Source: Chloroflexota bacterium (GTDB lineage: Bacteria > Chloroflexota > Dormibacteria > Aeolococcales > Aeolococcaceae). From it: 57,935 nt of DNA. How positions within the stretch are numbered: position 1 is the stretch's first letter; every line of letters starts with the position of its first letter. The stretch lies in assembly GCA_034666465.1 (NCBI GenBank), contig JAXDLT010000416.1, positions 1 through 57,935 of the forward strand, written 5' to 3'. A program made the translations under genes and the position numbers. The notes beneath the pieces were generated by a model, which had not been told where the DNA came from, searched no databases, and saw nothing but the letters and a program-made list of their open reading frames with translations. This document shows positions 39,837 through 57,935 of the stretch, one piece after another.

Positions 39837-39841
39837 ATGCC

Positions 39842-41077
39842 ATGAGCGACGTGTACGTGGCCGGCGCGGCGATGACAGGCTTCGGCAGGTTTCCGCAGAG
39901 CTCGATCCGCTCGCTTGCGGAGGAGGCGGTGAGCGAGGCGCTGGCGGACGCCGGAATCGGGCCACAGGACGTGCAGATGGCCGCCTTCGCCAACGCCGCC
40001 GGCGGCGTCCTGAGCGGCCAGGAGATGATCCGCGGGCAGACGGCGCTGCGTCACACCGGGCTGCTCGGCATTCCCATCCTCAACGTCGAGAACGCGTGCG
40101 CCTCCGGCTCGAGCGCGGTGCACCTCGCCTGGCTGGCGATCCGCGCAGGGGCCTGCGATGTCGCCCTCGCCGTCGGTGCCGAGAAGCTCACTCACGAGGA
40201 CCGATCGCGACCGTTCGCCGCCCTGGCGGCCGCGCTCGACCAGTCCCAGGCCGACGAGCTCACGCGCGAGCTGCGACCCTCTCTCCGTCGCCGGAAGGGA
40301 GCGTCCGCCCCGGACCAGGTGGCGGCCGGCGACGGTGAGCGGTCGATCTTCATGGACCTCTACGCTGCCGAGGCCCGCACCTACATGGAGTCCAGCGGGG
40401 CCACCATCGAGGATCTGGCGCGGGTGGTGGTCAAGAGCCATCACCATGCCGTTGCCAACCCCAAGGCGCAGTACCGCCGGGAGGTGACGGTGGAGGAGGT
40501 GCTCGCCAGCCGGGAGATCGCGGCTCCCCTCACGCTGCTGATGTGCTCACGGATCAGCGACGGCGCCGCCGCGCTGGTCCTGTGCTCCGAGGGGTTCGCG
40601 CAGCGGCATGGAAGGACCACGGTCCGGCTGCGGACCTCGGCTCTCGTCTCCGGCCGTGACCGGCGGCCGCACGAGGCGACGGCGGTCGAGCGAGCCGCCG
40701 CACTCGCGTACGAGCAGGTGGGCATCGGTCCCGACGACGTGGACGTCGTCGAGCTCCAGGACGCCGCGGCGCCCGCCGAGCTGATCACCTACGAGGAGCT
40801 CGGCCTGTGTCCCGCCGACGAAGGGCCCGCACTGCTCGCCTCGGGGGCGACCGCGGTCGGCGGTCGCATGCCCGTGAACCCCAGTGGCGGCCTGCTCTCG
40901 AAGGGCGATCCGATGGGGGCGAGTGGCTGCGCACAGCTCGTCGAGCTGGTCGACCAGCTGCGGCGCCGCTGCGGTCCGCGGCAGATCGCCGGTGCCCGCA
41001 TCGCCCTCGCCGAGAACGCGGGCGGCTATCTCGGGAACGACCCTGCCGCCGCCGTTGTCACCATCCTGTCGAGGTAG
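39842..41077 (+). CDS. thiolase-family protein (SCP-x / lipid-transfer-type acetyl-CoA acyltransferase)
   Basis: MSDVYVAGAAMTGFGRF, active-site ENACASGSSA, C-terminal NPSGGLLSKGDPMGASG. Starts 5 nt after the synthetase stop. Confidence 0.9.
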   Translation: MSDVYVAGAAMTGFGRFPQSSIRSLAEEAVSEALADAGIGPQDVQMAAFANAAGGVLSGQEMIRGQTALRHTGLLGIPILNVENACASGSSAVHLAWLAIRAGACDVALAVGAEKLTHEDRSRPFAALAAALDQSQADELTRELRPSLRRRKGASAPDQVAAGDGERSIFMDLYAAEARTYMESSGATIEDLARVVVKSHHHAVANPKAQYRREVTVEEVLASREIAAPLTLLMCSRISDGAAALVLCSEGFAQRHGRTTVRLRTSALVSGRDRRPHEATAVERAAALAYEQVGIGPDDVDVVELQDAAAPAELITYEELGLCPADEGPALLASGATAVGGRMPVNPSGGLLSKGDPMGASGCAQLVELVDQLRRRCGPRQIAGARIALAENAGGYLGNDPAAAVVTILSR

Positions 41078-41107: not shown

Positions 41108-44023
41108 TCATCCGACAGGCTCGTGGCCACGAGGCTCAGCCGTCGTCACACGGTCCGAGTGAGGTGTCGCGGCCGTCCCCAGCGCTCCCGACAGCTCGAT
41201 GCGGGTGCTGACGTCGAGCTTGGTGAACACATTGGTGAGGTGGCCCTCGACGGTCCGGGCGGTGACGAACAGGTGCTGGGCGATCTGACGGTTGGTGAGC
41301 CCCTGGGCGGCCAGCTCGGCGATGCGGAGCTCGCTGGCGGTGAGGGCCTCGAGGCCGGTGAGCAGCACGCGGCGCGGCCGGGCGCCGGTGGCGCGCAGCT
41401 CGGTCTCGGCCCGGTCGGCGAGGGGGCGGGCGCCGGCGCGGTGCGCCGCGTCGACCGCGCGGCGCAGCAGCTCCCGGGCATCGGCGCGGCGGTTGCCGCG
41501 GCGCAGGAGCGCGCCGAGATCGGTGAGCGCGCGCGCCTGTTCGAGCCGGGTGTCGGGGCCGCCCAGCACCTCGATCGCCTCGCGCAGCAGCGACTCGCCG
41601 AGCGCACCGCCGGCGACCAGCCCGGCGGCCCGCAGCGCCACGCCGAGCGCGCGCGGGGCGCCGAAGGCGCGGGCCAGGGCCACCTCCTCCTCACTCAGGA
41701 GACGCGCCGCTTCGCCCTCACCCAGGGCGAGCTGCACCAGCGCGGTGTCGGAGCGCCAAGCGAGGTAGCAGGGGCTGCGCGCCTGCGTCCGCGATGCGAT
41801 CTCACCGACCGCCCGGAGGTCGGCGAGTGCCTCGGGGAGCCGCCGCTGCGCCAGCCGCAGGCGGGCACGAGCGTGGCGCAGCAACCCCGCCGTCTGCGAC
41901 ATGCCCTGGAGGTCGGCATCGAGCGGTCCGAGTGCCCGCTCGGCGCCCTCGAGCTCGCCGCGTTCCACGAGTGCCCAGACCAGCGCCCCCATCGCGAGCG
42001 GACGGTGGATCAGGATGGACGATGGGTTGGGGGTCTCGAGCAGGGCGCGCGCATCCGCCTCGACGGCGGTGAGATCGCCACGCCGGACCGCGAGCCAGGC
42101 CCGCTGTGCCAGCACCGCGGGAAGCACCAGCCCGTTCGCCGACGCCCGCGCCTCGGCCACGGCGGCGTCCAGCAGCGCCTGGGCCTCGCCGTAGCGCTCG
42201 GAGTAGAAGAGCGCGATGGTGGCGTACAGGAACCATGGCGGCTCGCCCGTCTCGGGCAGCGCGCGCGGGCCGGCGGCGATCGCCCGGCGAGCCAGCTCGG
42301 CAGCCTGCTCCGCCGGCTCGTTGGCCGACGCCGCCACGTAGGCCGCGACCGCCAGCGCAAGGCGCGGGACCGGCTGCTCCCTGGCGAGCGCGAGGAGGGC
42401 GCCGGCTCGACCGGCCACCGAGGGCGCGATGTCCGCGTCGAGGAATCCGAGTGCGACGGCCATGGCCTCCAGCGTCACGTGAGCGTCGCGCTCGTGCCGG
42501 TCGACATCGGCCTGGACGTGGTCGACCACCTCGACCGCCTCGGCCAGCCGGAGGTGGAGGCCCAGGGCCATGGCGAGCAGCAGTCCGGCGGCGGTTCGTG
42601 CCCTGTCGTCCCCGGCCGCCGCCACCGCCGCCGTCAGGTGCTCCTCCCACCCGGGGTGTCCGGCGCTGTACTCGGCCGAGCCGAGGTCGAGCAGCAGGCC
42701 CCCGTCGACCTCCGCCGGCGGCGGCTCCGCGAGTGCGCGGCGGAGGTAGGCGACCGCGGAGTCCGGCGCGCCGCCCGTGGCCGCGGTCCGGGCGGCTCGC
42801 CTCAGCTGCTCCACCACCCAGCCGTCGCCCGCCGGAGCGGTCAGCAGCAGATGCTCGGCGGCACGGGCCTCGCCCGCGTGGCCCTCCGCCAGCAGGCGCG
42901 CCGCGCGTCCGTGCGCCTCGGCGCGGTCGGTCGCGGCGATCTCCCCGTAGACGCCGGCGCGCAGCATGGGATGGGCGAAGGCGAGCGGCCGCTCCGCCAG
43001 CACGCCGGCGCGGACGAGAAGCTCGGCCGCCTCCGCCGCCGCGCCGGGTGCGAGCCCGGCCAGCTCCGCCGCCTCCGCCGGCTCGGCGCGCTCCAGGACC
43101 GATACCGCGCGGGCGAGGCGGGCCGCGTCCGGGCCCAGCCGCCGGAGCTGCAGCACCGCCCATCGACCCACGGTGGCGGTGGCGAGCCCCTGCACCCTCG
43201 ACGCCGAGGCGGCGACCGGAGCGACCCCCGCCTCCTGCAGCGCCGCCACGAGCGTGCGGACCAGGAACGGCGTTCCGCCGGTCGCCTCCCGGCATGCCGA
43301 CGCGAAGCCGGGGTCCGGCTCGGAGCCCAACCCCGCCGCGACCATCCGGGCGACGCCGCCGGCGGAGAGCGGTGCCAGCGTGAGGATCTCGGTCGCCGAG
43401 TCCATCGCCAGCACGGCGAGCAGCTCGCCCTCACGACCCGCTCCCGCCTCGGCGGGCCGCGCCGCCAGCAGCACGGCGGCGCGCAGCTCCTCCACTCGGG
43501 GCAGCAGGAAGGCGAGGAAGCGCAGCGATCCACAGTCCACCCACTGCGCGTCGTCGACCACCAGCGCCACCGGCCGCTCGGCCGCCAGGTTCGCGAACAG
43601 CCAGTAGAGCCCGTGGAGCACCGCGAAGGACGGGTCCGGAGCGGCCAGCGCGGGCTCGCCGGCCGCGCGGTGCGCCCGCGGCAGGCCGAGCAGCGCTGCC
43701 GCGACCCCGGGTGGGCCCTCCAGGAGCGAGGCACGCTCGCCGTCCGGCGCCTCCGCCAGGAGCGGCTCGACCAGCTGCCGCACCACGCCGAACGCGAACT
43801 CGCGCTCCAGCTCGGCACCGCGCGCCCGCAGCACCCGGAAGCCCTCGGCCTCCGCCACCTCGCGCGCGGCCCCGAGCATCACGGTCTTGCCCATGCCGGC
43901 GGGCCCCTCGACGACGAGCGCGCCGCCTCGACCCTCGCGCGCCCGCCGCAGGCTCCGCCGGATCCGCTCGAGCTCCCGCTCGCGCTCGAACAAGGGGCCG
44001 TCATCCGCCGTCACGCCTGACAT
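41108..44023 (-). CDS. LuxR-family large ATP-binding regulator (LAL)
   Basis: Walker A GPAGMGKTVML, Walker B ALVVDDAQW, long helical repeats, and C-terminal LTASELRIAELAAQGLTNRQIAQHLFVTARTVEGHLTNVFTKL. Confidence 0.9.
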   Translation of the reverse strand: MSGVTADDGPLFERERELERIRRSLRRAREGRGGALVVEGPAGMGKTVMLGAAREVAEAEGFRVLRARGAELEREFAFGVVRQLVEPLLAEAPDGERASLLEGPPGVAAALLGLPRAHRAAGEPALAAPDPSFAVLHGLYWLFANLAAERPVALVVDDAQWVDCGSLRFLAFLLPRVEELRAAVLLAARPAEAGAGREGELLAVLAMDSATEILTLAPLSAGGVARMVAAGLGSEPDPGFASACREATGGTPFLVRTLVAALQEAGVAPVAASASRVQGLATATVGRWAVLQLRRLGPDAARLARAVSVLERAEPAEAAELAGLAPGAAAEAAELLVRAGVLAERPLAFAHPMLRAGVYGEIAATDRAEAHGRAARLLAEGHAGEARAAEHLLLTAPAGDGWVVEQLRRAARTAATGGAPDSAVAYLRRALAEPPPAEVDGGLLLDLGSAEYSAGHPGWEEHLTAAVAAAGDDRARTAAGLLLAMALGLHLRLAEAVEVVDHVQADVDRHERDAHVTLEAMAVALGFLDADIAPSVAGRAGALLALAREQPVPRLALAVAAYVAASANEPAEQAAELARRAIAAGPRALPETGEPPWFLYATIALFYSERYGEAQALLDAAVAEARASANGLVLPAVLAQRAWLAVRRGDLTAVEADARALLETPNPSSILIHRPLAMGALVWALVERGELEGAERALGPLDADLQGMSQTAGLLRHARARLRLAQRRLPEALADLRAVGEIASRTQARSPCYLAWRSDTALVQLALGEGEAARLLSEEEVALARAFGAPRALGVALRAAGLVAGGALGESLLREAIEVLGGPDTRLEQARALTDLGALLRRGNRRADARELLRRAVDAAHRAGARPLADRAETELRATGARPRRVLLTGLEALTASELRIAELAAQGLTNRQIAQHLFVTARTVEGHLTNVFTKLDVSTRIELSGALGTAATPHSDRVTTAEPRGHEPVG

Positions 44024-46408: not shown

Positions 46409-48055
46409 CTATGCGCCGATATCCTTGCGCGTGAACCGGAACGCACCCAGGCCCAATGCCAGCGCGCTGACCGCCAGGACGCCCACGACCGAGGTCAGCC
46501 GCAGGCCGTGCACCAGCGGCGTGCCGTAGTAGTAGAACGCCGAGAGCCGCAGCGTCGCACCGGGCCACCTGAGCTCCGGGCCGATGAAGCTGATGAAGAA
46601 CCAGATCAGCAGCACGAGGCTGAGCAGCCCGGTGTCGGCCGCCGTGCGCAGCCAGCCCGACGCCAGGTAGCCGATGGCGGCGGTCAGCAGCCCCAGCGGG
46701 ATCATCCCCAGGGTCGCCGCCGCCAGGTGGCCCGGGTCGAGCGTCAGGCCGGTGGCCGCGGCGGCCCCGGCTGAGGCGGCAAGTGTGGTCACGCCGATGA
46801 TCACGGTCGCCGAGGCGAGCGCGGCGAAGCGACCCAGGAGCACCCGCAGCCGTGACTGCGGCGCTGCCAGGACCAGCTCGAGGCGGCCGTTCTGCTCGTC
46901 CGCGGACCAGCGGGCGACCTGGGTGACGGCGAAGGCCATCAGGAAGAGCGGCAGGAGGCCGAACAGTGCGCTGAGGAAGCCGGCGTCGAGGCTGGCGCCT
47001 CCGCCGCCCAGGTCCCTGATCAGCGTCTGCATGGTCGACCCGGCGAGGAGGCTGCTCAGCCTCGTCTCCATCTGCTGGACGGCGACCACCATCCAGGCGG
47101 CGGAGCCGGCGATGCCCAGGGTCCACCAGACGGCCGGCATCGCGATCATGCCCAGGCTGCGCGTGTAGACCGAGCGCAGCGACCAGTCTCCGACCGGCAG
47201 CGCTCGGATGGAGGTGCGACCGCGCTCCGGCAGCCGCAGCCAGCGCGGCAGCGCCACCGTCCCGCCCACGTCGCGGCGGGCGAAGAGGCGCACCGCCGCC
47301 GCGCTCGAGGCCAGGGCGAGGCCGAGCAGGAGGAGCATCGCGCCGGCGTTGGCGCCGTGGCCGGGGACCAGGGGCTTGCTCAGGTTGTAGTAGTAGACGG
47401 GGGAGATGCGCGAGATCCACTCCGTGTCGGGAATGACGCGATGGACCATGTCCAGGACGATGGCGACCAGCAGCACGCCCGACGTCACGCCCGCCGCGGT
47501 GCTCCGCTCCCGGGTGAACTGCGAGATCAGAAGAGCCAGGCCGCCGAGCACGGCGCAGACCAGGGCGAGGTTCAGCCCGAAGAGGAGCGCGTCGCCGAGG
47601 CCGAAGTCGCCGCCGAACCTCCGGCCGCCCGCGAACGCCAGCAGCGCGATCAGCAGGCCCATGCTCAGCAGCGCGGTCCACATCGCGGCCAGCTTCTCGA
47701 GCACCACCTGCGTCCGCCGCTGCGGAAGCGAGAGCAGCATGTCGAGCGAGCCGCGCTCCTCCTCACCTCGCAGCATGCGGCTGGCGGCGAGGATGGGCCA
47801 GAGCGTGATGAGGAGGATGAAGACGCCGATCTTGAAGGTCGCGTACCCGCCGATGGTGTCGACCGCGACCACGTCGGCGTTCCAGGCGAACGTGTTGGCC
47901 AGGCCGATCAGCTGCTCCCGCGCCTGCGGGGTCGTGAGCAGTGTGCCCACGCTCGCCATCGGCGAGACCACCACCAGGCCCATCCCGATGCCCCAGCCCA
48001 GGATGGCGACGCGGTGGTCGTGGAGGGACTTCAGAAAGACGTTCCTACGCCACAT
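46409..48055 (-). CDS. large ABC-2-type transporter permease (duplicated 6-TM, about 12 TM)
   Basis: 548 aa and strongly hydrophobic throughout. The ATG at 48055 overlaps the ATPase stop by 11 nt. Confidence 0.8.
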   Translation of the reverse strand: MWRRNVFLKSLHDHRVAILGWGIGMGLVVVSPMASVGTLLTTPQAREQLIGLANTFAWNADVVAVDTIGGYATFKIGVFILLITLWPILAASRMLRGEEERGSLDMLLSLPQRRTQVVLEKLAAMWTALLSMGLLIALLAFAGGRRFGGDFGLGDALLFGLNLALVCAVLGGLALLISQFTRERSTAAGVTSGVLLVAIVLDMVHRVIPDTEWISRISPVYYYNLSKPLVPGHGANAGAMLLLLGLALASSAAAVRLFARRDVGGTVALPRWLRLPERGRTSIRALPVGDWSLRSVYTRSLGMIAMPAVWWTLGIAGSAAWMVVAVQQMETRLSSLLAGSTMQTLIRDLGGGGASLDAGFLSALFGLLPLFLMAFAVTQVARWSADEQNGRLELVLAAPQSRLRVLLGRFAALASATVIIGVTTLAASAGAAAATGLTLDPGHLAAATLGMIPLGLLTAAIGYLASGWLRTAADTGLLSLVLLIWFFISFIGPELRWPGATLRLSAFYYYGTPLVHGLRLTSVVGVLAVSALALGLGAFRFTRKDIGA

Positions 48056-48971
48056 CCCGGGCCTCCCTGGCACGCAGGCCGTCGCCCTCGTAGTAGCGCA
48101 GGAAGATGTCCTCCAGGCTCGGCTCGTGACTGCTGAGCGAGACCACCGGGTAGTGGGCCGCCGCCTTGATCACCGCGTCCGGCGCGCCCTGCATCGCGAT
48201 CCTCAGCGCACGGCCGCCGGCCACCTCCTCGATCCCGGCCACGCCGTCCAGGGTCGCGAACGCCGCGGCGGGAACGGCGGCGCCGAACGTGATGGTGATC
48301 TCGTACCGCTTGATGTCCTTGATCTCCGCCATGCCACCGACCCGCACGAGGCGGCCGTCGCGGATGATGCCCACCCGGCTGCAGAGGTGCTCGACCTCGC
48401 CGAGGACGTGGGAGGAGAGGAAGACGGTGCTGCCCCCCTCGCGCGCCTCGTGCACCATCCGGGCGAACTCCTGCTGGATCAGCGGGTCGAGCCCGTTGGT
48501 CGGCTCGTCGAGGATGAGCAGGCGCGGGCGGTGCATGAACGCCTGGACGAGCACCACCTTGCGCCTGTTGCCGGTGGAGTACTGGCGGAACTTCCTCCCG
48601 GTGTCGAGGTCGAGCCGCTCGATCAGCCTCCGGAGATGCGCCTGGTCGACACCGCCGCGCAGGTGGGCGAAGTACTCGAGGATCTGCCCACCGGTCAGGT
48701 CGGGGTCGAGAGCGGATTCGCCCGGTGCGTAGCCGGTCAGGCGTTTCACCTCGAGCGACTGCTCCCAGCAGTCGAGCCCCGCGATCCGCGCGGTGCCGGC
48801 GTCGGCGCGCAGCAGGGCCATGAGCACCCGGATGGTGGTCGTCTTGCCGGCGCCGTTCGGGCCCAGGAAGCCGAAGACCTCGCCCTCCTCCACCCGGAGT
48901 GAGACGCCGTCGATGCCGCGTGTCCCGCCGTAGCTCTTGGTGAGCCCTTCCGCGTCGATGATCGCTGCCAT
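48045..48971 (-). CDS. ABC transporter ATP-binding protein
   Basis: ATG at 48971 after GAGGAGAG. Walker A GPNGAGKTTT, YSTGNRRKV, LILDEPT. Confidence 0.9.
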   Translation of the reverse strand: MAAIIDAEGLTKSYGGTRGIDGVSLRVEEGEVFGFLGPNGAGKTTTIRVLMALLRADAGTARIAGLDCWEQSLEVKRLTGYAPGESALDPDLTGGQILEYFAHLRGGVDQAHLRRLIERLDLDTGRKFRQYSTGNRRKVVLVQAFMHRPRLLILDEPTNGLDPLIQQEFARMVHEAREGGSTVFLSSHVLGEVEHLCSRVGIIRDGRLVRVGGMAEIKDIKRYEITITFGAAVPAAAFATLDGVAGIEEVAGGRALRIAMQGAPDAVIKAAAHYPVVSLSSHEPSLEDIFLRYYEGDGLRAREARDVA

Positions 48972-48985
48972 CGGTGTGTCTCTCC

Positions 48986-49669
48986 TCAGTCGAACCAGAA
49001 CCGCAGGGTGGTCTCGTCCGTGAGGGTGACCGAACCGGCGGAGACCCCCAGGATCCGTTCGAATGCCTCGGTGAAGGCCGCGTGGGTTCGCTGCACGACC
49101 TCGAAGGTGACGGTGCCGGCCCGGCGGCCGATGAGGTGCTCGAGGGCCACCTGCTGGTAGCCCTGGAGGAGGCACACGAGGATCGTCGCCGTCTCGCCGG
49201 GGGAGGCGGCGGTGATCACGCCCTCATCGACACCCTGCATGATGACCGCGGACAGGAGTGGCTGCAGGCGGGTCCCGGACATGCGCCGGACCTTCTCCCG
49301 GACGATCGCGTTGCCGTCCGAGTTCCACACCTCCACGATCGCCAGGGTCAGCTCCCTCTGCTGGGCCTTCCATCGAGCGATGGCGCCGAAGACCCTCTCC
49401 AGCTTCCGCAGCGCGGGCAGGTCCGGGTCGGCCAGGACGGGGGCGACGGCCACCATCGCGCCGTCGGCGAAACGGTCGACCACGGCTTCGAGGAGCGCCT
49501 GCTTGGAGTCGAAGTAGTGGTAGAAGGCTCCCCTGGAGGTGGTGAGCGCGTCCAGGACGTCCTGGATGCTCATCTGCTCGTAGCCCTTGGTCTGGATGAG
49601 GCGCTGGGCGACATCGAGGAACGCCTCCCGGCGCACCCGGTGAGCCGCCACGTCGACCGTTCTCGGCAT
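48986..49669 (-). CDS. TetR/AcrR-family transcriptional regulator
   Basis: N-terminal TetR HTH (REAFLDVAQRLIQTKGYEQMSIQDVLDALTTSRGAFYHYFDSKQAL). Lies 14 nt upstream of the ABC ATPase gene. Confidence 0.9.
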   Translation of the reverse strand: MPRTVDVAAHRVRREAFLDVAQRLIQTKGYEQMSIQDVLDALTTSRGAFYHYFDSKQALLEAVVDRFADGAMVAVAPVLADPDLPALRKLERVFGAIARWKAQQRELTLAIVEVWNSDGNAIVREKVRRMSGTRLQPLLSAVIMQGVDEGVITAASPGETATILVCLLQGYQQVALEHLIGRRAGTVTFEVVQRTHAAFTEAFERILGVSAGSVTLTDETTLRFWFD

Positions 49670-50156: not shown

Positions 50157-51158
50157 ATGGTGACAGTCATATCCGCTCCCCAGAGCTTCACCGAGGAGGA
50201 TCTCTACGTCGACCTCCGGGCGATTTTCGGGCACGCGCTCTTCCTGAAATGCGAGGGCTTCAACTTCGCCGGCTCCATCAAGCTGAAGGTCGCGACCGAG
50301 ATGGTGGAGGCCGCCGAGCGGGACGGGGTCCTGATACCGGAGTCGATCCTGGTCGAGTCCTCCTCCGGAAACCTCGGCGTGGCGCTCAGCATGCTCGCCG
50401 CGAGCAAGGGCTACCGTTTCCTGTGTGTGACGGACGCCCGCTGCAACCTGCAGACCAGGCGGCTGATGGAGGCGCTGGGCAGCCAGGTGCACGTCATCGC
50501 CGAGCCGGACGCCGTCGGCGGCCTCCTCGGCGCGCGGCTCGACTTCGTCCGCGCGCTGTGCGCCTCCGACCGTCGGTACGTGTGGCTCGATCAGTACACC
50601 AATCCGGGCAACTGGGAGGCGCACCACCGCAGGACCGCGCCGGCGATCGCTCGCCAGTTCCCGCGACTGGACGTGCTGTTCGTCGGCGCCGGCACCACCG
50701 GGACCCTGATGGGCTGCGCGCGGTACTTCCGGGCGTGGCACCGGCAGGTGCGGATCGTCGCCGTCGACACCGTCGGCTCGGTCACCTTCGGTGGTGCGCC
50801 CAGCCGCCGGATGATTCCCGGCCTGGGTGCGGGCGTCCGCCCGCCGCTGCTCGACGAGTCCTTCGTGGACGAGGTCGTCCTCGTCGAGGAGCAGGACACG
50901 ATCCGCGCCTGCCATCGTCTGGCCCGACGCGGATTCCTCTTCGGCGGCTCCACCGGCACGGTGGTCAGCGGCGCGATGGACTGGTTGGCCGGGCACGACG
51001 CGCGTGAGCTCACCACGGTGGCCATCGCCCCGGACCTCGGCGACCGCTACCTCGACACCGTCTACCAGCCCAGCTGGGTGGAGGGGCTCTACGGCGAGCA
51101 CGTGCTCGGGTCCCAGGAGCTGACCGGCAAGGCGGCGTCCCGCTCCCGGGCAGCCTGA
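50157..51158 (+). CDS. sbnA: SbnA-like PLP-dependent enzyme (cysteine-synthase fold; N-(2-amino-2-carboxyethyl)-L-glutamate synthase, L-Dap pathway)
   Basis: ATG after GAGGAGG. Collinear by eye with S. aureus SbnA as I recall it: LFLKCEGFNFAGSIKLK (PLP Lys), ESSSGNLG, DQYTNPGNWEAH, GAGTTGT, IPGLGAG, FGGSTG, PDLGDRYLDTVY. Confidence 0.8.
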   Translation: MVTVISAPQSFTEEDLYVDLRAIFGHALFLKCEGFNFAGSIKLKVATEMVEAAERDGVLIPESILVESSSGNLGVALSMLAASKGYRFLCVTDARCNLQTRRLMEALGSQVHVIAEPDAVGGLLGARLDFVRALCASDRRYVWLDQYTNPGNWEAHHRRTAPAIARQFPRLDVLFVGAGTTGTLMGCARYFRAWHRQVRIVAVDTVGSVTFGGAPSRRMIPGLGAGVRPPLLDESFVDEVVLVEEQDTIRACHRLARRGFLFGGSTGTVVSGAMDWLAGHDARELTTVAIAPDLGDRYLDTVYQPSWVEGLYGEHVLGSQELTGKAASRSRAA

Positions 51159-51185
51159 CAGGCGCCACCGGTTCGAGGAGTCCAC

Positions 51186-54071
51186 GTGGTGAGAAAGTCT
51201 GTCGAGGCCTCGACCGTCGCTCTGGCTGAACCTCCGACCGACCGGGGTCGGGGCGCCGGCCCGGAGACCGGCCTCAGGAGGATCCTCGCCGATGTGCTGG
51301 CTGACATCGTGCACGAGGTCCTGGCAGGCGATCTGGCCGTACCGGCGACCACTCCCCCGGACACGGACGCCGGTGCGACGACCGCCACCGAGAGGATCCT
51401 CGCCGAGGTGTTCGCCGACATCATGCGCGTCGAGCACGTGCCGGTCGACGGCCACTTCTTCGACGACCTCGGTGCTGACTCCCTGGTGATGGCCCGGTTC
51501 TGCGCGCGGGTCAGGAAGCGGGCGGACCTCCCCTCGGCGTCGATGAAGGACATCTACCGGCACCCGACGATCAGACGTCTGGCCACGGCGCTCGCGGACG
51601 CCGCGCCCGCCCCTGTCGAGAATCCTCTCGAGACGATGCTCGCCGAGGTGTTCTCCGGCATCATGCGCGTCGAGCACGTGTCGGTCGACGGCCACTTCTT
51701 CGACGACCTCGGTGCTGATTCCCTGGTGATGGCCCGATTCTGCGCGCGGGTCAGGAAGCGGGCGGACCTCCCCTCGGTGTCGATGAAGGACGTCTACCGG
51801 CACCCGACGATCAGGCGCCTGGCGACGGCGCTCGCGGGCACCGCGCCCACCCCCGTCAGGTCGCCGATCGCGGCATCGGTCGAGGTGGCGGCACCGGCCG
51901 GCGGGCTGGAGTACGTCCTCTGTGGGACGCTGCAGCTCCTCTCCTTCGTCGGGTATGCGTGCGCCGTCGCACTTGTCCTGAGCCGAGGATACGACTGGAT
52001 CTCCGCCGGGTCGGACCTGATCGGCATCTACCTGCGGGCGGTCGTCTTCGGCGGCGCGACCCTCCTCGGCATGTGCACCGTTCCCATCCTGGCGAAGTGG
52101 ATGCTCATCGGTCGGTGGAAGCCCGGGGAGATCCGCATCTGGAGCCTGGCGTATGTCCGCTTCTGGATCGTCAGGACGCTGATCCGGTCGAACCCGCTGC
52201 TCCTCATGTTCGTCGGGTCGCCGCTCTACGTGCTCTACCTGCGAGCGCTGGGCGCGAAGGTCGGACGAGGCGTCGCGATCTTCTCCAGGACGGTGCCCGT
52301 GTGCACCGACCTGCTCACCATCGGCGACGGCACGGTCATCCGCAAGCAGTCGTTCTTCACCGGCTACCGGGCGCACGCCGGTCGGATCCAGACGGGTGCG
52401 GTCACCATCGGAAGAGACGTGCTCATCGGCGAGAGGACCGTGCTCGACATCAACACGTCACTGGGCGATCGGGCCCAGCTCGGCCATGCCTCCGCTCTGT
52501 ACGCCGGGCAGGCCGTGCCCGAGTGCGAGCGCTGGCACGGGTCGCCGGCGCAGCGGACCGAGGTCGACTACCGCTCGGTCGATCCGGCCCGCTGCGGCAC
52601 CCTGCGCCGGGCCCTCTACAGCGTCAACCAGCTGATGCTGCTGCTCGCTGTCTACATGCCGCTGACCATCGGCGTCGTGGGCGTCCTGTTCGACGGCGTC
52701 CCGCGTCTCAGCCCCCTCCTGAACCCGGGGCCCGAGGATTTCACGAGGTGGGCGTTCTACGGCGACGTCCTGGCCGTCTCCCTCGCGCTTTTCCTCGGCG
52801 CGGTGCTCGTCCGCCTCCTCCTCGTGGTCACGGTTCCTCGCCTGCTCAACCTCGCCATCGAGCCGGGCAAGGTCTATCGCCTGTATGGCTTCCACTACTC
52901 CGTCCACCGGGCGATCGCGCGCATGACCAATCTCAGGTTCTTCCCCTATCTCTTCGGCGACAGCTCCTACATCGTTCACTATCTGCGGTGCCTCGGGTAC
53001 GACCTCTCCCGGGTCGAGCAGACCGGGTCGAACTTCGGCACGGTGGTGGCGCACGACACGCCGTACCTGAGCTCTGTCGGCCGTGGAACGATGATCGCCG
53101 ACGGGCTGTCGATCATCAATGCCGACTTCTCGAGCACGTCCTTCCGCGTGACCCGGGTGTCGATCGGGGCACACAACTTCCTGGGGAACGGCATCGCCTA
53201 TCCGTCGCAGGGCAGGACGGGCGACAACTGCCTCCTCGCGACGAAGGTGATGGTCCCCGTCGACGGGGCGATCCGGGAGGGTGTCGGGCTCCTGGGCTCG
53301 CCCAGCTTCGAGATTCCGCGATCGGTCGCGCGTGACAGCCGGTTACTGAGGGGCGGGGACGAGCTGCGCCGCCGCCTCACCGCCAAGAACCGGTACAACC
53401 TCCGCACCATGGGCCTGGCCCTCCTGGTGCGGTGCATCCACTTCTTCGGGATCGTGCTGCTGACCATGGCGATGGCGGCTTCCCACCCGCGGTTCGGCTG
53501 GGAGGCGGTCGCCATGGAGATGCTCCTCACCCCGCTGTACACCGAAGCCTACTTCGTGCTGATCCAGCGCGGCGCCACGCGGTTCCGGCCTCTGCGTCCA
53601 CAGGAATGCTCGATCTACGACCCCTACTTCTGGTGGCACGAACGCTACTGGAAGCTCGTGATCACCGGTGGCCTGGACCGGGCGTTGAGCGGCACACCGT
53701 TCAAGAACGTCGTCTCACGGCTGCTGGGAGTACGCCTCGGCAGACGGGTCTTCGACGACGGCTGCGACATCCCGGAGAGGACTCTCGCCACCATCGGTGA
53801 CGACTGCACGCTGAACGCGGGGAGCTCGATCCAGTGCCACTCGCAGGAGGACGGAGCCTTCAAGTCCGACCGGACCACGATCGGCACCAGCTGCACCATC
53901 GGGATCGGCGCTCTCGTCCACTACGGCGTGACCATGGGCGACGGCGCGGTGCTCGCCCCCGACTCCTTCCTCATGAAGGGAGAGGAGGTCCCGGCGCACG
54001 CGCGGTGGGGGGGCAACCCTGCCGGGGAGATTCGGGAGGACAGGGATCAGCCGGCGGCCATCAGGTGGTGA
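51186..54071 (+). CDS. Pls/PosA-type membrane homopoly(amino acid) synthetase lacking an A domain: PCP-PCP-[2TM + LbH-like domain]x3
   Basis: GTG start 27 nt after the sbnA-like stop. It has two PCPs (FFDDLGADSLVMARFCARVRK, twice). Three units follow of two TM helices plus a hexapeptide-repeat-like soluble domain (..TIGDGTVIRK.., ..SIGAHNFLGNG.., ..TIGDDCTLNAGSSIQCHSQEDG..GNPAGEI). This matches the C-terminal architecture described for epsilon-poly-lysine synthetase. No AMP-binding motifs are present. Confidence 0.8.
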   Translation: MVRKSVEASTVALAEPPTDRGRGAGPETGLRRILADVLADIVHEVLAGDLAVPATTPPDTDAGATTATERILAEVFADIMRVEHVPVDGHFFDDLGADSLVMARFCARVRKRADLPSASMKDIYRHPTIRRLATALADAAPAPVENPLETMLAEVFSGIMRVEHVSVDGHFFDDLGADSLVMARFCARVRKRADLPSVSMKDVYRHPTIRRLATALAGTAPTPVRSPIAASVEVAAPAGGLEYVLCGTLQLLSFVGYACAVALVLSRGYDWISAGSDLIGIYLRAVVFGGATLLGMCTVPILAKWMLIGRWKPGEIRIWSLAYVRFWIVRTLIRSNPLLLMFVGSPLYVLYLRALGAKVGRGVAIFSRTVPVCTDLLTIGDGTVIRKQSFFTGYRAHAGRIQTGAVTIGRDVLIGERTVLDINTSLGDRAQLGHASALYAGQAVPECERWHGSPAQRTEVDYRSVDPARCGTLRRALYSVNQLMLLLAVYMPLTIGVVGVLFDGVPRLSPLLNPGPEDFTRWAFYGDVLAVSLALFLGAVLVRLLLVVTVPRLLNLAIEPGKVYRLYGFHYSVHRAIARMTNLRFFPYLFGDSSYIVHYLRCLGYDLSRVEQTGSNFGTVVAHDTPYLSSVGRGTMIADGLSIINADFSSTSFRVTRVSIGAHNFLGNGIAYPSQGRTGDNCLLATKVMVPVDGAIREGVGLLGSPSFEIPRSVARDSRLLRGGDELRRRLTAKNRYNLRTMGLALLVRCIHFFGIVLLTMAMAASHPRFGWEAVAMEMLLTPLYTEAYFVLIQRGATRFRPLRPQECSIYDPYFWWHERYWKLVITGGLDRALSGTPFKNVVSRLLGVRLGRRVFDDGCDIPERTLATIGDDCTLNAGSSIQCHSQEDGAFKSDRTTIGTSCTIGIGALVHYGVTMGDGAVLAPDSFLMKGEEVPAHARWGGNPAGEIREDRDQPAAIRW
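51399..51878 (+). repeat. tandem direct duplication, 2 x 240 bp, encoding the two PCP domains (plus a about 45-nt partial third copy at 51279..51325)
   Basis: Offset is exactly 240 nt. I counted 13 mismatches and no indels across 51401-51610 versus 51641-51850. Confidence 0.9.
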
Positions 54072-54160
54072 GCGGTCTGTCGCGATCGTCATGGCCACCG
54101 CGGCGCCGGCCCGGACAGCGCGAACAGCACCGTGGCAGCGGTGAGTGGAAGGAGGAATCG

Positions 54161-56758
54161 ATGGAGATGCCAGTGGAAGCCGGCCGGGAGTTCTGGCTGG
54201 GTGTGCTCGGCGCCGGCGGGTTCACCGCGATCCCGCGGTGGACGCTCGAGCCGGTGACGGGCGTCGCCGCGCACGAGACGACGATCCCCGACGACCTGGT
54301 CGCCGGGTTGCGCCGGCTGGCGGGCGAGCTGGCCATGCCGTTCAGCTCGGTGCTGCTGGCCGCGCACGCCAAGGTGCTCGCCGCGCTGTCCGGCGAGCAC
54401 GAGGTCACGACCGGCCACCTCGCCGCGGAGGGCGGCCGGCCGTTGCCCTGCCGGCTCACGATCGGACCCGGCTCGTGGCGTGCGCTGCTGCTGGACACCC
54501 ACCGGGTCGAGAGAGCGCTGCTGTCGTACAGCACCGTCCCGGTCGACGCCCTCAGGCGCGAGCTGGGCCTGACCGGACCCTCGTTCGAGACCGTGTTCGC
54601 TCCGACCGGTGCCGGTGGCGATCTCGCCGAGGGCACCGTCCTGTGGGTGGGGACCCCACCGCGGGGCGGCCGACTCGCCCTTCAGCTGCGGTACCGCGCC
54701 GACGTGCTCGACGCGGAGTCCGCCGCCAGGATCGCCGGCTATCACCTGACCGCGCTCGCGCTGATCGCCGCCGATCCGGAGGCCGAGCACGGGCGGCAGA
54801 GCCTGCTCTCCTCCGGGGAGCTCCACGTCCAGCTCGACGGGCTCGCCGGACCGCGCCGCGAGCTGCCGGATCGCCGGTTTCACGAGCTGTTCGAGCAGCG
54901 GGTGGGGACCCACCCGGACGCCGTCGCCGCCGTGCACGGCGACCGGCGATGGACCTACCGGGAGCTCAACGTCCGTGCCAACCGGCTGGGACGAGCCCTG
55001 TTGGCGCGGGGGCTGCGCCGCGAAGGTGTCGTCGCGGTGGTGACCGAGCGCAACCTGGACTGGATGGCCGCCGTCCTCGCGGTCTTCAAGGCCGGGGGCG
55101 TGTACCTGCCCATCGAGCCGCATCTCCCGGCGGATCGCATCGCGACCACGCTCTCCCGTGCCGCGTGCGGGTTGGTGCTGACCGAGCCCGGCAGCACCAC
55201 CATGCTCGACCAGGCCCTCAGGTCGCTGTCCGGGGTCCGGACGCTCCTCGTCGACACGGCCTACGAGGAGGACCATGCCGGCGGTGATCTCGGCGTCGGT
55301 GTCGCGCCGGACCAGCTCGCCTACATCTACTTCACGTCCGGCTCCACCGGGGAGCCCAAGGGCGCGATGTGCGAGCACGCGGGCATGCTCAACCACCTCT
55401 ACGCCAAGATCGACGACCTGGAGATCGGCGAGGGGCAGGTGGTCGCCCAGACCGCACCGCAGTGCTTCGACATCTCGCTGTGGCAGCTGGTGTCCGCGCT
55501 CCTGGTCGGTGGGCGGACCCTGCTGGTCGAGCAGGAGGTGATCCTGGATGTCCAGCGGTTCGTCGACAGGATCGTCGGCGGCCGGGTCGCCGTCCTCCAG
55601 GTGGTGCCGTCGTACCTCGAGGTCGTCCTGTCCCATCTGGAGCAGCACCCCCGCGAGCTGCCGGACCTGCGCTGCGTGTCGGTCACCGGCGAGGCGCTGA
55701 GGCACGAGCTCACGCAGCGGTGGTTCGCGGCCGAGCCCGGGATCACGCTGGTCAACGCGTACGGGCTGACCGAGACGTCCGACGACACCAATCATGAGGT
55801 CATGACCCGGGTGCCGGACACAGAACGGGTCCCGCTCGGTCGCCCCGTCAACAACGTGCACGTCTATGTGGTCGACGAACACCTGTCCCCGGTGCCGCTC
55901 GGCGCCCCCGGTGAGATCGTCTTCTCCGGGGTCTGCGTCGGCCGCGGGTATGTCAACGACCCTGAGCGCACCCGGCTGGCCTTCATGGCCGATCCGCACC
56001 GCGAGGGCCGGCGGCTCTACCGGGGCGGTGACCACGGCCGCTGGCTGCCCGAGGGCAAGCTGGAGTTCCTCGGCCGCCGGGACACCCAGGTCAAGGTCTC
56101 CGGCTTCCGGATCGAGATCGGCGAGATCGAGAACGCCCTGTCGCGGGTGTCCGGCGTCCGCGACGGTGCGGTGGTGGTCGCCGAGCGAGCGGACCGGAGC
56201 AGGCACCTGGTGGCCTTCTACTCCGGCCGGCGGCCACTCGAGCTCGATGTCCTGCGGGACCGGCTGGGTGAGTCGCTGCCCGAGTACATGGTCCCGTCGG
56301 TATTCCATTGGCGGGAGCATCTGCCGCTGACCGCCAACAGCAAGATCGACAGGAGGACGCTGACTGCGCTCGCCGGAGAGCTCGACGCCGTCGAGCAGGA
56401 CCACCACGCGCCGACCACGCCGACCGAGCGGTGGCTGGCGGCCGCGTGGGCGAAGGTGCTCGGCATCCCGCCGGATCAGATCGGCCGGCGGGACCACTTC
56501 TTCGACCGGGGCGGCACGTCGCTGTCGGCTGTGAGGCTGGTCATCGCCCTCGACCGCGCGGTGTCCCTCCAGGACCTCACCCGTCACCCGGTCCTCGCCA
56601 CTCTGGCGGGGCTGGTCGAGGGCAGGTCCACGCCGTGCTCCGGGCTGCTGCAGTCACTGTCGGAGGCGGACGGTGTGTGCTTCCCCCACGCCGGCGGCAA
56701 TGCGGTGAACGTCCAGCCGATGGCCGGGGCGCTGCGGGCCGGCGGCCTGGCAGTCTAG
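54161..56758 (+). CDS. NRPS: C-terminal half of a condensation domain - A - PCP - about 30-aa thioesterase stub
   Basis: ATG after GGAAGGAGGAA. No HHxxxDG, but C-domain late motifs are present (EFWLGVL.., PFSSVLLAAHAKVLAALSG). A-domain motifs are LAYIYFTSGSTGEPKG, FDISLWQ, NAYGLTE, YRGGDHGRW, GRRDTQVKVSGFRIEIGEIE, SKIDR. PCP motif is FFDRGGTSLSAV. It ends GVCFPHAGGNAVNVQPMAGALRAGGLAV*. Confidence 0.9.
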   Translation: MEMPVEAGREFWLGVLGAGGFTAIPRWTLEPVTGVAAHETTIPDDLVAGLRRLAGELAMPFSSVLLAAHAKVLAALSGEHEVTTGHLAAEGGRPLPCRLTIGPGSWRALLLDTHRVERALLSYSTVPVDALRRELGLTGPSFETVFAPTGAGGDLAEGTVLWVGTPPRGGRLALQLRYRADVLDAESAARIAGYHLTALALIAADPEAEHGRQSLLSSGELHVQLDGLAGPRRELPDRRFHELFEQRVGTHPDAVAAVHGDRRWTYRELNVRANRLGRALLARGLRREGVVAVVTERNLDWMAAVLAVFKAGGVYLPIEPHLPADRIATTLSRAACGLVLTEPGSTTMLDQALRSLSGVRTLLVDTAYEEDHAGGDLGVGVAPDQLAYIYFTSGSTGEPKGAMCEHAGMLNHLYAKIDDLEIGEGQVVAQTAPQCFDISLWQLVSALLVGGRTLLVEQEVILDVQRFVDRIVGGRVAVLQVVPSYLEVVLSHLEQHPRELPDLRCVSVTGEALRHELTQRWFAAEPGITLVNAYGLTETSDDTNHEVMTRVPDTERVPLGRPVNNVHVYVVDEHLSPVPLGAPGEIVFSGVCVGRGYVNDPERTRLAFMADPHREGRRLYRGGDHGRWLPEGKLEFLGRRDTQVKVSGFRIEIGEIENALSRVSGVRDGAVVVAERADRSRHLVAFYSGRRPLELDVLRDRLGESLPEYMVPSVFHWREHLPLTANSKIDRRTLTALAGELDAVEQDHHAPTTPTERWLAAAWAKVLGIPPDQIGRRDHFFDRGGTSLSAVRLVIALDRAVSLQDLTRHPVLATLAGLVEGRSTPCSGLLQSLSEADGVCFPHAGGNAVNVQPMAGALRAGGLAV

Positions 56759-56771
56759 AGAGGAGATCGAG

Positions 56772-57776
56772 ATGTCGCCCCCATCCCCGACGTCGCCGCT
56801 CGACGTGGATCTGCACCCCGGCCGACCTCCGCTGATGCGGGCCGAGGCAACCGGCGACGCGCCCAGATGGGCGGCCGAGCACCGGGATGCGCTGCGCGCC
56901 GTCGTCGCCGAGCACGGTTCGGTCCTGGTCCGTGGCCTCGCGCTGCGCGACGTGGCCGGGATCGGTGCCGTCTTTCAGCGGCTGGCCGGCGGCCTGATGA
57001 CCGAGAAGGAGACCTTCGCGCCCCGGCGCTCCCACTCCGGCGGCGTGTACTCCTCGTCGAAGTGGCCGTCGAACCAGCCGATGTGCATGCACCACGAGCT
57101 GAGCTACACACTCCAGTTTCCCGGCCTGATGCTGTTCGCGTGCCTCGGCGCGCCCAGCCACGGCGGGGCGACCGCGGTGGCCGACTCGACGACCGTGCTC
57201 GACGCGCTGCCCGCCGGGTTGATCACGCGGTTCGAGCGGGAGGGCTGGCTGCTCATCCGCAACTACAACGACGAGATCGGGGCGTCCTTCGCCGAGGCGT
57301 TCGGCACCGAGGACCGTCGCGCCGTCGAGAGCTACTGTCGCGCCCACGCGATCGAGTTCGAGTGGCAACCGGACGGTGGACTGCGCACCCGGCAGCGCCG
57401 CAGCGCGGTGGTGCGCCACCCGGTCACCGGCCGGCGCTGCTGGTTCAACCAGGTCGCATTCCTCAACGAGTGGACGGTCGCCCCCGAGGTGCGTGAGTAC
57501 CTGGTGGACGTCCACGGTGCCGACGGGCTGCCGTTCACCACCCGCTTCGGCAACGGCGACCCGATCGGCGAGGACGTCGTGCAGCTGGTCAACAGTGTCT
57601 ACGACGCCAACACCGCACGTGAGCCGTGGCAGGCCGGCGACCTGATGCTGGTCGACAACATCCGCACCGCGCACAGCAGGGAGCCCTTCGAGGGACCCCG
57701 CGAGGTGCTCGTGGCGATGGCCGGCGCGGTGCGTCTGGCCGACTGCTCGCCGACCGTCGAGGTGACCGCCGGATGA
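56772..57776 (+). CDS. TauD/TfdA-family Fe(II)/2-oxoglutarate dioxygenase (SyrP-like)
   Basis: ATG after AGAGGAGA. HxE facial-triad motif (CMHHELSY), distal His and Arg (DNIRTAHSREPF), about 330 aa as for SyrP/clavaminate-synthase-like hydroxylases. Confidence 0.8.
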   Translation: MSPPSPTSPLDVDLHPGRPPLMRAEATGDAPRWAAEHRDALRAVVAEHGSVLVRGLALRDVAGIGAVFQRLAGGLMTEKETFAPRRSHSGGVYSSSKWPSNQPMCMHHELSYTLQFPGLMLFACLGAPSHGGATAVADSTTVLDALPAGLITRFEREGWLLIRNYNDEIGASFAEAFGTEDRRAVESYCRAHAIEFEWQPDGGLRTRQRRSAVVRHPVTGRRCWFNQVAFLNEWTVAPEVREYLVDVHGADGLPFTTRFGNGDPIGEDVVQLVNSVYDANTAREPWQAGDLMLVDNIRTAHSREPFEGPREVLVAMAGAVRLADCSPTVEVTAG

Positions 57777-57935
57777 CCACCATCTCCTCCACCACGAGGG
57801 AGTCCGCAACGCCCGAGCCGATCACCGTGCCACCGTTCGCGGTGATCTCGGGGGCCCAGGTCGAGCGCGCGCTGCGGGGCCGCGTGAACCAGATCGTCGA
57901 GTTGGTCGAGGCCACCTACCGGCTGCACGGCGCCG
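57773..57935 (+). CDS. sbnB: 5' part of an SbnB-like (ornithine-cyclodeaminase fold) NAD-dependent enzyme, cut by window end
   Basis: The ATG overlaps the dioxygenase stop (ATGA). MTTISSTTRESATPEPITVPPFAVISGAQVERALRGRVNQIVELVEATYRLHGA.. resembles SbnB/VioK-type N-termini as I recall them. Only 54 codons are visible. Confidence 0.5.
   Translation, partial: MTTISSTTRESATPEPITVPPFAVISGAQVERALRGRVNQIVELVEATYRLHGA

Follow-up and report, generated by a model that had tools for sequence, protein, structure and literature searches.

The right end of contig JAXDLT010000416.1 carries five genes on the forward strand (positions 50157-57935) that probably encode a split synthetase of the Pls/PDAP type, making a cationic isopeptide oligomer or polymer based on L-2,3-diaminopropionate (Dap); from the sequence, we put the probability of this reading at roughly 60%. 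The contig, a 57,935-bp stretch of about 70% G+C from a metagenome-assembled genome (MAG) labelled Chloroflexota, was analyzed in its entirety and is referred to here as the window. In the scheme that we propose, the products of sbnA- and sbnB-like genes would make L-Dap, and the adenylation (A) domain of a relic terminal module of a nonribosomal peptide synthetase (NRPS) would activate it, loading its own carrier (T) domain and, in trans, the tandem carriers of a membrane polymerase, as the A-domain specificity code and natural gene fusions suggest. By homology to the epsilon-poly-L-lysine synthetase Pls and the poly-Dap (PDAP) synthetase PDAPs, the three left-handed beta-helix (LbH) blocks of the polymerase would then couple carrier-bound Dap iteratively to an acceptor, either Dap or a chain, through the acceptor's side-chain amine, with the product passed outward. 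In the least certain step, a TauD-family dioxygenase may oxidatively modify carrier-bound Dap or the chain, or may aid monomer supply.

A polymerase without an A domain, flanked by Dap genes

The five co-directional genes comprise, in order, a gene for an sbnA-like pyridoxal phosphate enzyme (gene 1, 50157..51158); a gene for a Pls/PosA-type membrane enzyme without an A domain ("A-less"), in which two peptidyl carrier protein (PCP) domains precede three LbH blocks flanked by transmembrane segments (gene 2, 51186..54071); an NRPS gene consisting of half a condensation (C) domain, an A domain, a T domain and a thioesterase (TE) stub (gene 3, 54161..56758); a gene for a TauD/SyrP-like Fe(II)/2-oxoglutarate dioxygenase (gene 4, 56772..57776), called TauD below; and the 5' part of an sbnB-like gene, cut at the contig end (gene 5, 57773..57935). 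They are separated by gaps of 27 nt (51158 to 51186), 89 nt (54071 to 54161) and 13 nt (56758 to 56772), and genes 4 and 5 share an ATGA overlap that we read directly at 57773-57776. A GGAGG ribosome-binding site lies upstream of the ATG of gene 3 at 54161. The number, orientation, order, coordinates and spacing of these genes are all as the initial annotation had described them.

We compared the window, by means of a tblastn domain map, with 80 related loci (designated L plus a number; related proteins are designated P plus a number) from a scan of one genome per species. This survey bore out the expected synteny of sbnA and sbnB with A-less polymerases of the TIGR02353 type: the same five-gene cassette is present in about 55 of the 80 loci, mostly in Actinomycetota. 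In L001, a JGI contig on which the whole locus is visible and whose polymerase is 84% identical to that of the window, a divergent unit of TetR, ABC ATPase and ABC-2 permease genes and a 65-codon open reading frame (ORF) are followed by sbnA, the polymerase, the NRPS, TauD, sbnB and a phosphopantetheinyl transferase (PPTase) of the Sfp/PptT type, after which unrelated genes begin. This layout indicates that the window is without only most of sbnB and the PPTase gene, in agreement with the earlier suspicion that the cluster continues past the contig end. As the window is the entire contig, the cluster could not be followed further on it, and look-ups of the exact protein sequences of its genes gave no match.

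Gene 1 matches TIGR03945, the SbnA equivalog model, at 383 bits (cut-off, 349.95), as well as PF00291, and fails both cysteine synthase models (CysK, 180 bits against a cut-off of 351; CysM, 157 bits against 394). The 54-codon fragment of gene 5 gives no profile match by itself; it is 89% identical over 53 residues to its L001 ortholog, which scores 421.5 bits against the SbnB model TIGR03944 (cut-off, 326.9) and fails the ornithine cyclodeaminase (OCD) model widely. Gene 1 is therefore of the SbnA family and gene 5, going by its ortholog, probably of the SbnB family, as had been proposed, and they do not resolve as cysteine synthase and OCD. Going by family membership, SbnA would catalyze the first and SbnB the second step of Dap synthesis. 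An sbnA ortholog is present in nearly all of the related loci, where its place varies between 5' of the polymerase and 3' of sbnB.

Gene 2 gives a full-length match to TIGR02353, the Pls/PosA model, at 784 bits (cut-off, 423.1), with residues 245-946 spanning profile positions 1-695 of 695, so its assignment to the Pls type stands. No AMP-binding domain was found in gene 2 (51186-54071) by profile search. Hydropathy marks hydrophobic segments at residues 247-265, 285-303, 483-501, 530-548 and 744-762; paired segments bracket each soluble block, Hexapep matches are present, and BLAST detects an internal repeat between block 1 and block 3. These features fit the predicted architecture of three LbH-like blocks parted by paired transmembrane helices. 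Among solved structures, a search by sequence turned up none of a full-length enzyme of the Pls type.

A-less polymerases are common, with 110 of the 120 closest protein clusters having no AMP-binding domain. They also occur outside the cassette setting: A-less PCP-polymerase genes are found in L025, L036, L037, L069, L072, L077 and L079, and within 10 kb on either side of the polymerase in these loci there is no sbnA, sbnB, TauD or A domain of any kind.

Two PP-binding (PF00550) domains are present in gene 2. The first (51399..51593; best stretch, residues 72-136) carries the motif GADSL, with DSL starting at residue 98 and the serine at residue 99; the second (51639..51833; GADSL at residue 178) is its tandem duplicate. 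The underlying repeat measures 229 nt at 93% DNA identity (51389-51617 versus 51629-51857), and the number of PCP copies is two in the window, one in L001 and one to four across relatives. The double carrier that the initial annotation had counted as part of the division of labor is thus present, but it is a recent, lineage-specific tandem duplication in a family whose copy number drifts.

Proposed adenylation in trans

The A domain of gene 3 (54866..56395) matches AMP-binding, AMP-binding_C and TIGR01733 (384 bits; cut-off, 317). We read its specificity code by alignment to GrsA, using a GrsA sequence that yields the expected DAWTIAAICK at the canonical positions. Of 60 cassette A domains, 58 have exactly the window code, DIWQSTADDK, and the other two depart from it at position 7 only, despite an overall A-domain identity that drops to about 65% among cassette loci. 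In the sulfazecin synthetase SulM, the third A domain binds L-Dap in what has been termed mode 3, with Asp at code positions 8 and 9 (SulA3, DVWEMNADDK), and homologs of this domain are reported in which Ile is the second and Gln the fourth residue of the code (PMC12042044). The window code follows this pattern, having Asp at positions 1, 8 and 9 and Lys at position 10, and shares Ile 2 and Gln 4 with the SulM A3 homologs. Overall similarity to SulA3 is ordinary (chain 9n1u, 266 bits, versus 310 for GrsA and 646 for LgrA). As a SulM-A3-type code occurs here together with sbnA and sbnB, L-Dap is the likely substrate that the gene 3 A domain is predicted to activate.

Two related loci join this A domain physically to the polymerase. 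In L054, an X-A unit (X being the part that precedes the A domain) is fused directly to a Pls-type PCP and polymerase, with the junction at the start of the carrier domain; a stop interrupts the 5' end of the A-coding region, possibly through a frameshift or an assembly error. In L059, PCP, polymerase, X and A form a single reading frame. Both fusions adjoin sbnB and sbnA.

In other cassette members, L006, L007, L018 and L041 (P0036-P0117), the polymerase retains an A domain in cis. The code of this cis domain, DFECLSVVT, agrees with that of the poly-diaminobutyrate (PDAB) synthetase, DFECLSAVTK, at eight of the first nine positions and resembles that of the PDAP synthetase, DFEYVGTVTK (both codes from the supplement of PMC10522769). 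These cis domains have a degenerate A3 motif (e.g., YTSGSTDRPEG) and are missing the A8-A10 region and Lys517, and some end at about profile position 330 of 384. In all nine polymerase clusters with a cis A domain that we examined, that domain is dead. A further arrangement is seen in L043 (Pseudonocardia xinjiangensis), where, upstream of position 10001, a relic A-PCP-polymerase gene lies directly 5' of the A-less PCP-polymerase gene of the cassette.

Together, the near-invariant, L-Dap-fitting code, the two natural fusions and the dead cis A domains strengthen the case, made in the initial annotation, for supply of the polymerase by a trans A domain on a separate NRPS. The simplest reading of these sequences is that the polymerase descends from a PDAB/PDAP-type synthetase, that a Dap-specific A domain from a terminal NRPS module took over its loading, and that its own A domain decayed and was eventually lost.

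NRPS relics, the dioxygenase and competing readings

The remainder of gene 3 agrees with its earlier description as half-C/A/PCP, with one addition. The C-domain relic (54161..54865) corresponds to the C-terminal half of such a domain: its match to the Condensation profile (PF00668) is confined to positions 398-451, the last 55 or so, and at 15.5 bits lies below the cut-off of 30.6. No HHxxxDG motif was found in residues 1-235, which resemble the second half of a C domain, residue 11 onward aligning to McyA (chain 8jbr_A) from position 209. Across loci, the relic is the least conserved part of the NRPS (39-91% identity). The T domain (56429..56614; PF00550, residues 757-818) is followed by the TE stub that the initial annotation had missed (56636..56758; CFPHAGGNAV...), which shares 81% identity with the first part of the L003 TE. 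It extends about 40 residues past the T domain and has no GxSxG motif, and gene 4 starts 13 nt later. In about 20 relatives, around 300 residues follow the PCP serine, with an intact GHSSG motif and a PF00975 match; the stub is the remnant of a deleted TE domain. Among Streptomyces loci, L084 (Streptomyces sp. NBC_01669), L085 and L086 have the full form of the cassette, with a TE.

Gene 4 matches the TauD family PF02668 at 152 bits (cut-off, 27; E = 3e-44), consistent with its original designation as a TauD-like dioxygenase. The iron ligands and the 2-oxoglutarate-binding arginine (H107-x-E109, H301 and R303) are invariant in 57 cassette homologs. The protein is 84-85% identical to Streptomyces homologs and is better conserved than the polymerase. 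A close homolog, P0231, is annotated as "SyrP-like"; the nearest solved structures, At3g21360 (1y0z) and 9yut, are not informative on substrate. Among cassette loci with contigs covering the region, the two that have a fused A domain, L054 and L059, are the only ones without TauD.

The TE and TauD bear on a reading in which the NRPS (A-T, with a TE in many relatives) and TauD form a sub-pathway of their own: an oxidized Dap unit on the T domain would serve as primer or terminator, or a chain grown on the T domain would be released by the TE, with the same A domain feeding the polymerase. In its favor, systems of the SyrP and NikP1 types are known to prepare modified amino acids by pairing A-T-TE with a hydroxylase that depends on a carrier; the 20 or so relatives described above retain an intact TE (GHSSG), and the fused-A loci that have no NRPS T domain also have no TauD. 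Against this, the TE has been lost in most lineages, the window included, while T and TauD stay, and TauD is kept without an NRPS T domain in L012, L049, L051 and Streptomyces avermitilis. For the latter reason, we rejected the idea that TauD tracks the NRPS T domain: the link suggested by the two T-less fusions is weak. We consider the sub-pathway unlikely as an account of the cassette. It overlaps with the split synthetase that we favor, as does the envelope reading discussed below, and the probabilities that we attach to the alternatives need not sum to one.

The loci just named include a variant cassette (L012 4056-10752; L049 and L051; also L017) composed of a polymerase with one or two PCPs, TauD and an SbnA-like pyridoxal phosphate enzyme; neither SbnB nor an X-A-T NRPS was found in these four loci. 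A stand-alone AMP-binding enzyme follows in L012 and L049, in L012 without a carrier domain. We considered the L012 protein as a candidate Dap A domain and rejected it, as it is acyl-CoA-ligase-like instead (code, DASGATM--K). Every complete locus examined has SbnB, TauD or both; L080 has neither within its available sequence.

This distribution raises the alternative that TauD acts in monomer supply, hydroxylating the SbnA product N-(1-amino-1-carboxy-2-ethyl)glutamate next to the nitrogen to yield Dap and 2-oxoglutarate, in parallel with or as a backup to SbnB. Hydroxylation beside a heteroatom followed by collapse is the reaction of the family's namesake, TauD itself, and both the SbnB-less variants L012, L049 and L051 and the retention of SbnB or TauD in the complete loci would fit. 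Most cassettes, however, hold both SbnB and a strongly conserved TauD (84-85% between the MAG and Streptomyces), which argues against simple redundancy, and the acyl-CoA-ligase-like activating enzyme of the variant means that its product may differ. We regard this role as quite improbable.

In S. avermitilis (L082; L083 7188-13343), the cassette consists of a PCP-polymerase (886 aa, 67% identical to that of the window), TauD, SbnB and SbnA, with an Amidase_2 gene upstream and a PucR-type regulator downstream. It has no NRPS gene, there being 152 nt between the polymerase and TauD, so that either loading comes from elsewhere or this copy is defunct. This is one of several points that count against the split synthetase. 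Another is that TauD is present in variants without an NRPS T domain, which makes its partner ambiguous. Chemically, a simple hydroxy-Dap is awkward and is not to be assumed, since Dap hydroxylated at the beta carbon, whether free or as a thioester, would be an unstable carbinolamine. The scheme also gives no reason for the NRPS to keep its own T domain, nor for the intact TE in about 20 relatives. Finally, no product of any cassette member is described in the searchable literature, with a prior description possible in subscription journals.

More radical readings would place the genes in ordinary primary metabolism, as cysteine synthase and OCD, or treat the cluster as decayed and nonfunctional. 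In favor of decay are the two relics in the NRPS (half C domain and TE stub), the ending of the contig within sbnB and the missing NRPS of S. avermitilis. All reading frames are intact, however, the operon spacing is tight with the GGAGG site kept, and neither the pocket code nor the metal ligands of the dioxygenase vary across about 60 loci; as to primary metabolism, the SbnA model was passed by gene 1 and the SbnB model by the L001 ortholog of gene 5, while the CysK, CysM and OCD models failed widely. We take both of these readings to be largely refuted by the profile scores and the conservation, and very improbable.

A different fate for the Dap is suggested by one unusual polymerase. P0005 from Pseudonocardia nigra (L087 9001-12744) is a cassette polymerase with three PCPs in which one further transmembrane helix (residues 1013-1031) comes after the last LbH block and leads, through a linker rich in proline, to two PG_binding_1 domains; given the extra helix, this putative peptidoglycan anchor would be extracellular. 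X-A-T-TE and TauD lie downstream of it, and two phage-type integrase genes lie upstream. The polymerase might accordingly move Dap, as a unit or short chain, from the carriers to an acceptor in the envelope (peptidoglycan, wall polymer or lipid), adding positive charge much as Dlt does with D-alanine. Besides the P0005 anchor, the wall-related neighbors of several loci (an Amidase_2 gene in S. avermitilis, YkuD in L001 and, in L086, a small protein with PG_binding_1) and the lack of an exporter conserved with the cassette speak for such transfer. Those neighbors vary by locus and may be there by chance, however, and a secreted polycation would bind the wall regardless, which would explain the anchor too. 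The characterized TIGR02353 enzymes in PMC4668381 and PMC10522769 all give a released homopolymer, and the patchy distribution of the cassette, sometimes beside integrases, fits an accessory metabolite better than envelope housekeeping. Envelope transfer, like the NRPS sub-pathway, therefore appears to us an unlikely alternative to release of a Dap polymer by a split synthetase.

The cassette occurs in dozens of soil bacteria, with many Streptomyces among them; the genera concerned are, among others, Pseudonocardia, Streptomyces, Geodermatophilus, Blastococcus, Kutzneria, Actinomadura, Kocuria, Arthrobacter and Citricoccus, and a few cassette-bearing MAGs are labelled Chloroflexota, Rokuibacteriota, Planctomycetia, Solirubrobacterales or Rhizobacter. 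No further conserved neighbor (exporter, regulator or MbtH) was found, no family occurring in more than 8 of 56 loci, and phage-type integrases adjoin the cassette in one locus. The cassette is self-contained, mobile and widespread, and its architecture is not rare. Some loci hold fragments or additional copies: L040 (A, TE, TauD and SbnB) and L038 (A and T) contain partial, out-of-frame cassette pieces that are pseudogenes or assembly errors, and L011 (15438-21141) has a second X-like piece and a second TauD 3' of the first TauD, with an unrelated A-domain match between them, which suggests a partial duplication of the cassette.

The divergent TetR-ABC exporter noted earlier beside the cluster is indeed present on the reverse strand (46412..49669), where the TetR regulator, ABC ATPase and ABC-2 permease are 95-98% identical to L001 genes with TetR_N, ABC_tran and ABC2_membrane domains. 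It is not a conserved partner: the unit is shared by the window and L001 only and was not found in the other 79 related loci. Farther from the cassette, the reverse strand encodes a LuxR-family regulator (41108-44023; AAA_16 and GerE, 971 aa) in the part of the window that is richest in G+C (78%), and a 965-codon ORF antisense to this gene has no family match. A similar AAA_16/GerE gene stands on the other side of the cluster in L001. Also outside the cassette, an acyl-CoA ligase-type AMP-binding enzyme (547 aa) and then a thiolase-like protein (411 aa) are encoded on the forward strand at 38193-41077. PucR-type (GGDEF_2/HTH_30) regulators occur within a few kilobases of the cassette in three differing contexts (L001 19761-22078; L083 13413-15068 and 18640-19560; L012 13103-14686), and two of these three loci, L001 and L083, also have MEDS-domain genes. 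This proximity may reflect a weak regulatory link or chance.

Comparison with characterized synthetases

Cationic homopoly(amino acid)s (CHPAs) such as epsilon-polylysine serve as food preservatives and are studied as cell-penetrating carriers. To our knowledge, about six types are known, all made by single-protein A-PCP-polymerase enzymes. The gene 2 product resembles Pls, the delta-poly-L-ornithine synthetase PosA and the PDAB synthetase in its full-length TIGR02353 region and in the iterative isopeptide chemistry, from a carrier-bound donor, that is presumed for all of them. Unlike these enzymes, it has no A domain, and its family has one to four PCPs. In the characterized CHPA synthetases (Pls, PosA, PDAPs, PDABs and others), the A domain, PCP and polymerase make up one protein, and the third residue of the code is Glu (PMC10522769 and PMC12042044).

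The closest precedent is PDAPs (EXU85975.1) of Streptomyces albulus PD-1, for which Dap comes from the SbnA/SbnB homologs NjxA and NjxB, encoded outside the cluster; an enzyme of the TIGR02353 type can thus polymerize Dap made by SbnA/SbnB homologs (PMC4668381). The cassette shares with PDAPs a C-terminal TIGR02353-type domain with three soluble blocks between transmembrane helices, the Dap monomer and an SbnA/SbnB-type supply. PDAPs, however, has its own working cis A domain (DFEYVGTVTK, with Glu at position 3), one PCP, unlinked Dap genes and no dioxygenase partner, whereas the cassette has its A domain, with a different type of pocket, on another protein, its polymerase gene is flanked by those for Dap synthesis, and TauD is nearly always present.

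On the NRPS side, the nearest comparison is module 3 of SulM (C-A-T-TE; sulfazecin), with which gene 3 shares Asp at code positions 8 and 9, a terminal-module layout and an SbnA/SbnB-type Dap supply (SulG/SulH) (PMC12042044). Unlike in SulM, half of the C domain is deleted and the TE is a stub or, where a TE is present, has a Ser nucleophile (GHSSG), and we saw nothing in the cassette for beta-lactam formation.

The location of a TauD-family gene beside an A-T module is one that we take to parallel the carrier-acting hydroxylases of the SyrP type and DdaC/DdaD of dapdiamide. Unlike SyrP-type hydroxylases, the cassette TauD is encoded even in variants that have no NRPS T domain. We found no description of an A-less Pls or of this cassette in the full-text literature, subscription-only papers being outside the scope of the search, and the cassette is widespread and apparently uncharacterized.

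A bolder version of the split synthetase would have the trans-A-fed, Pls-type enzyme make a new polycation, for instance an oxidized or dehydro poly-Dap or a chain on, or released from, the NRPS carrier, that is delivered to or anchored in the wall in some lineages. We hold this as a tentative possibility, less likely than not. Such a system, if real, would be without precedent among CHPA synthetases, both in being split and in having a tailoring oxygenase dedicated to it.

The cassette indicates that a CHPA-type polymerase that has no A domain of its own can function, or is at least maintained by selection, using a separate A domain of another pocket type. It offers a clear natural example of domain replacement in trans in which the decaying cis domain is still visible in relatives. 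Because many cultured strains of Streptomyces, Pseudonocardia, Geodermatophilus, Kocuria and Arthrobacter carry the cassette, the idea lends itself to direct testing; if confirmed, it would mean that the polymerase could be supplied through exchange of a small soluble A-T protein, and would point to a new, possibly oxidized, Dap polymer.

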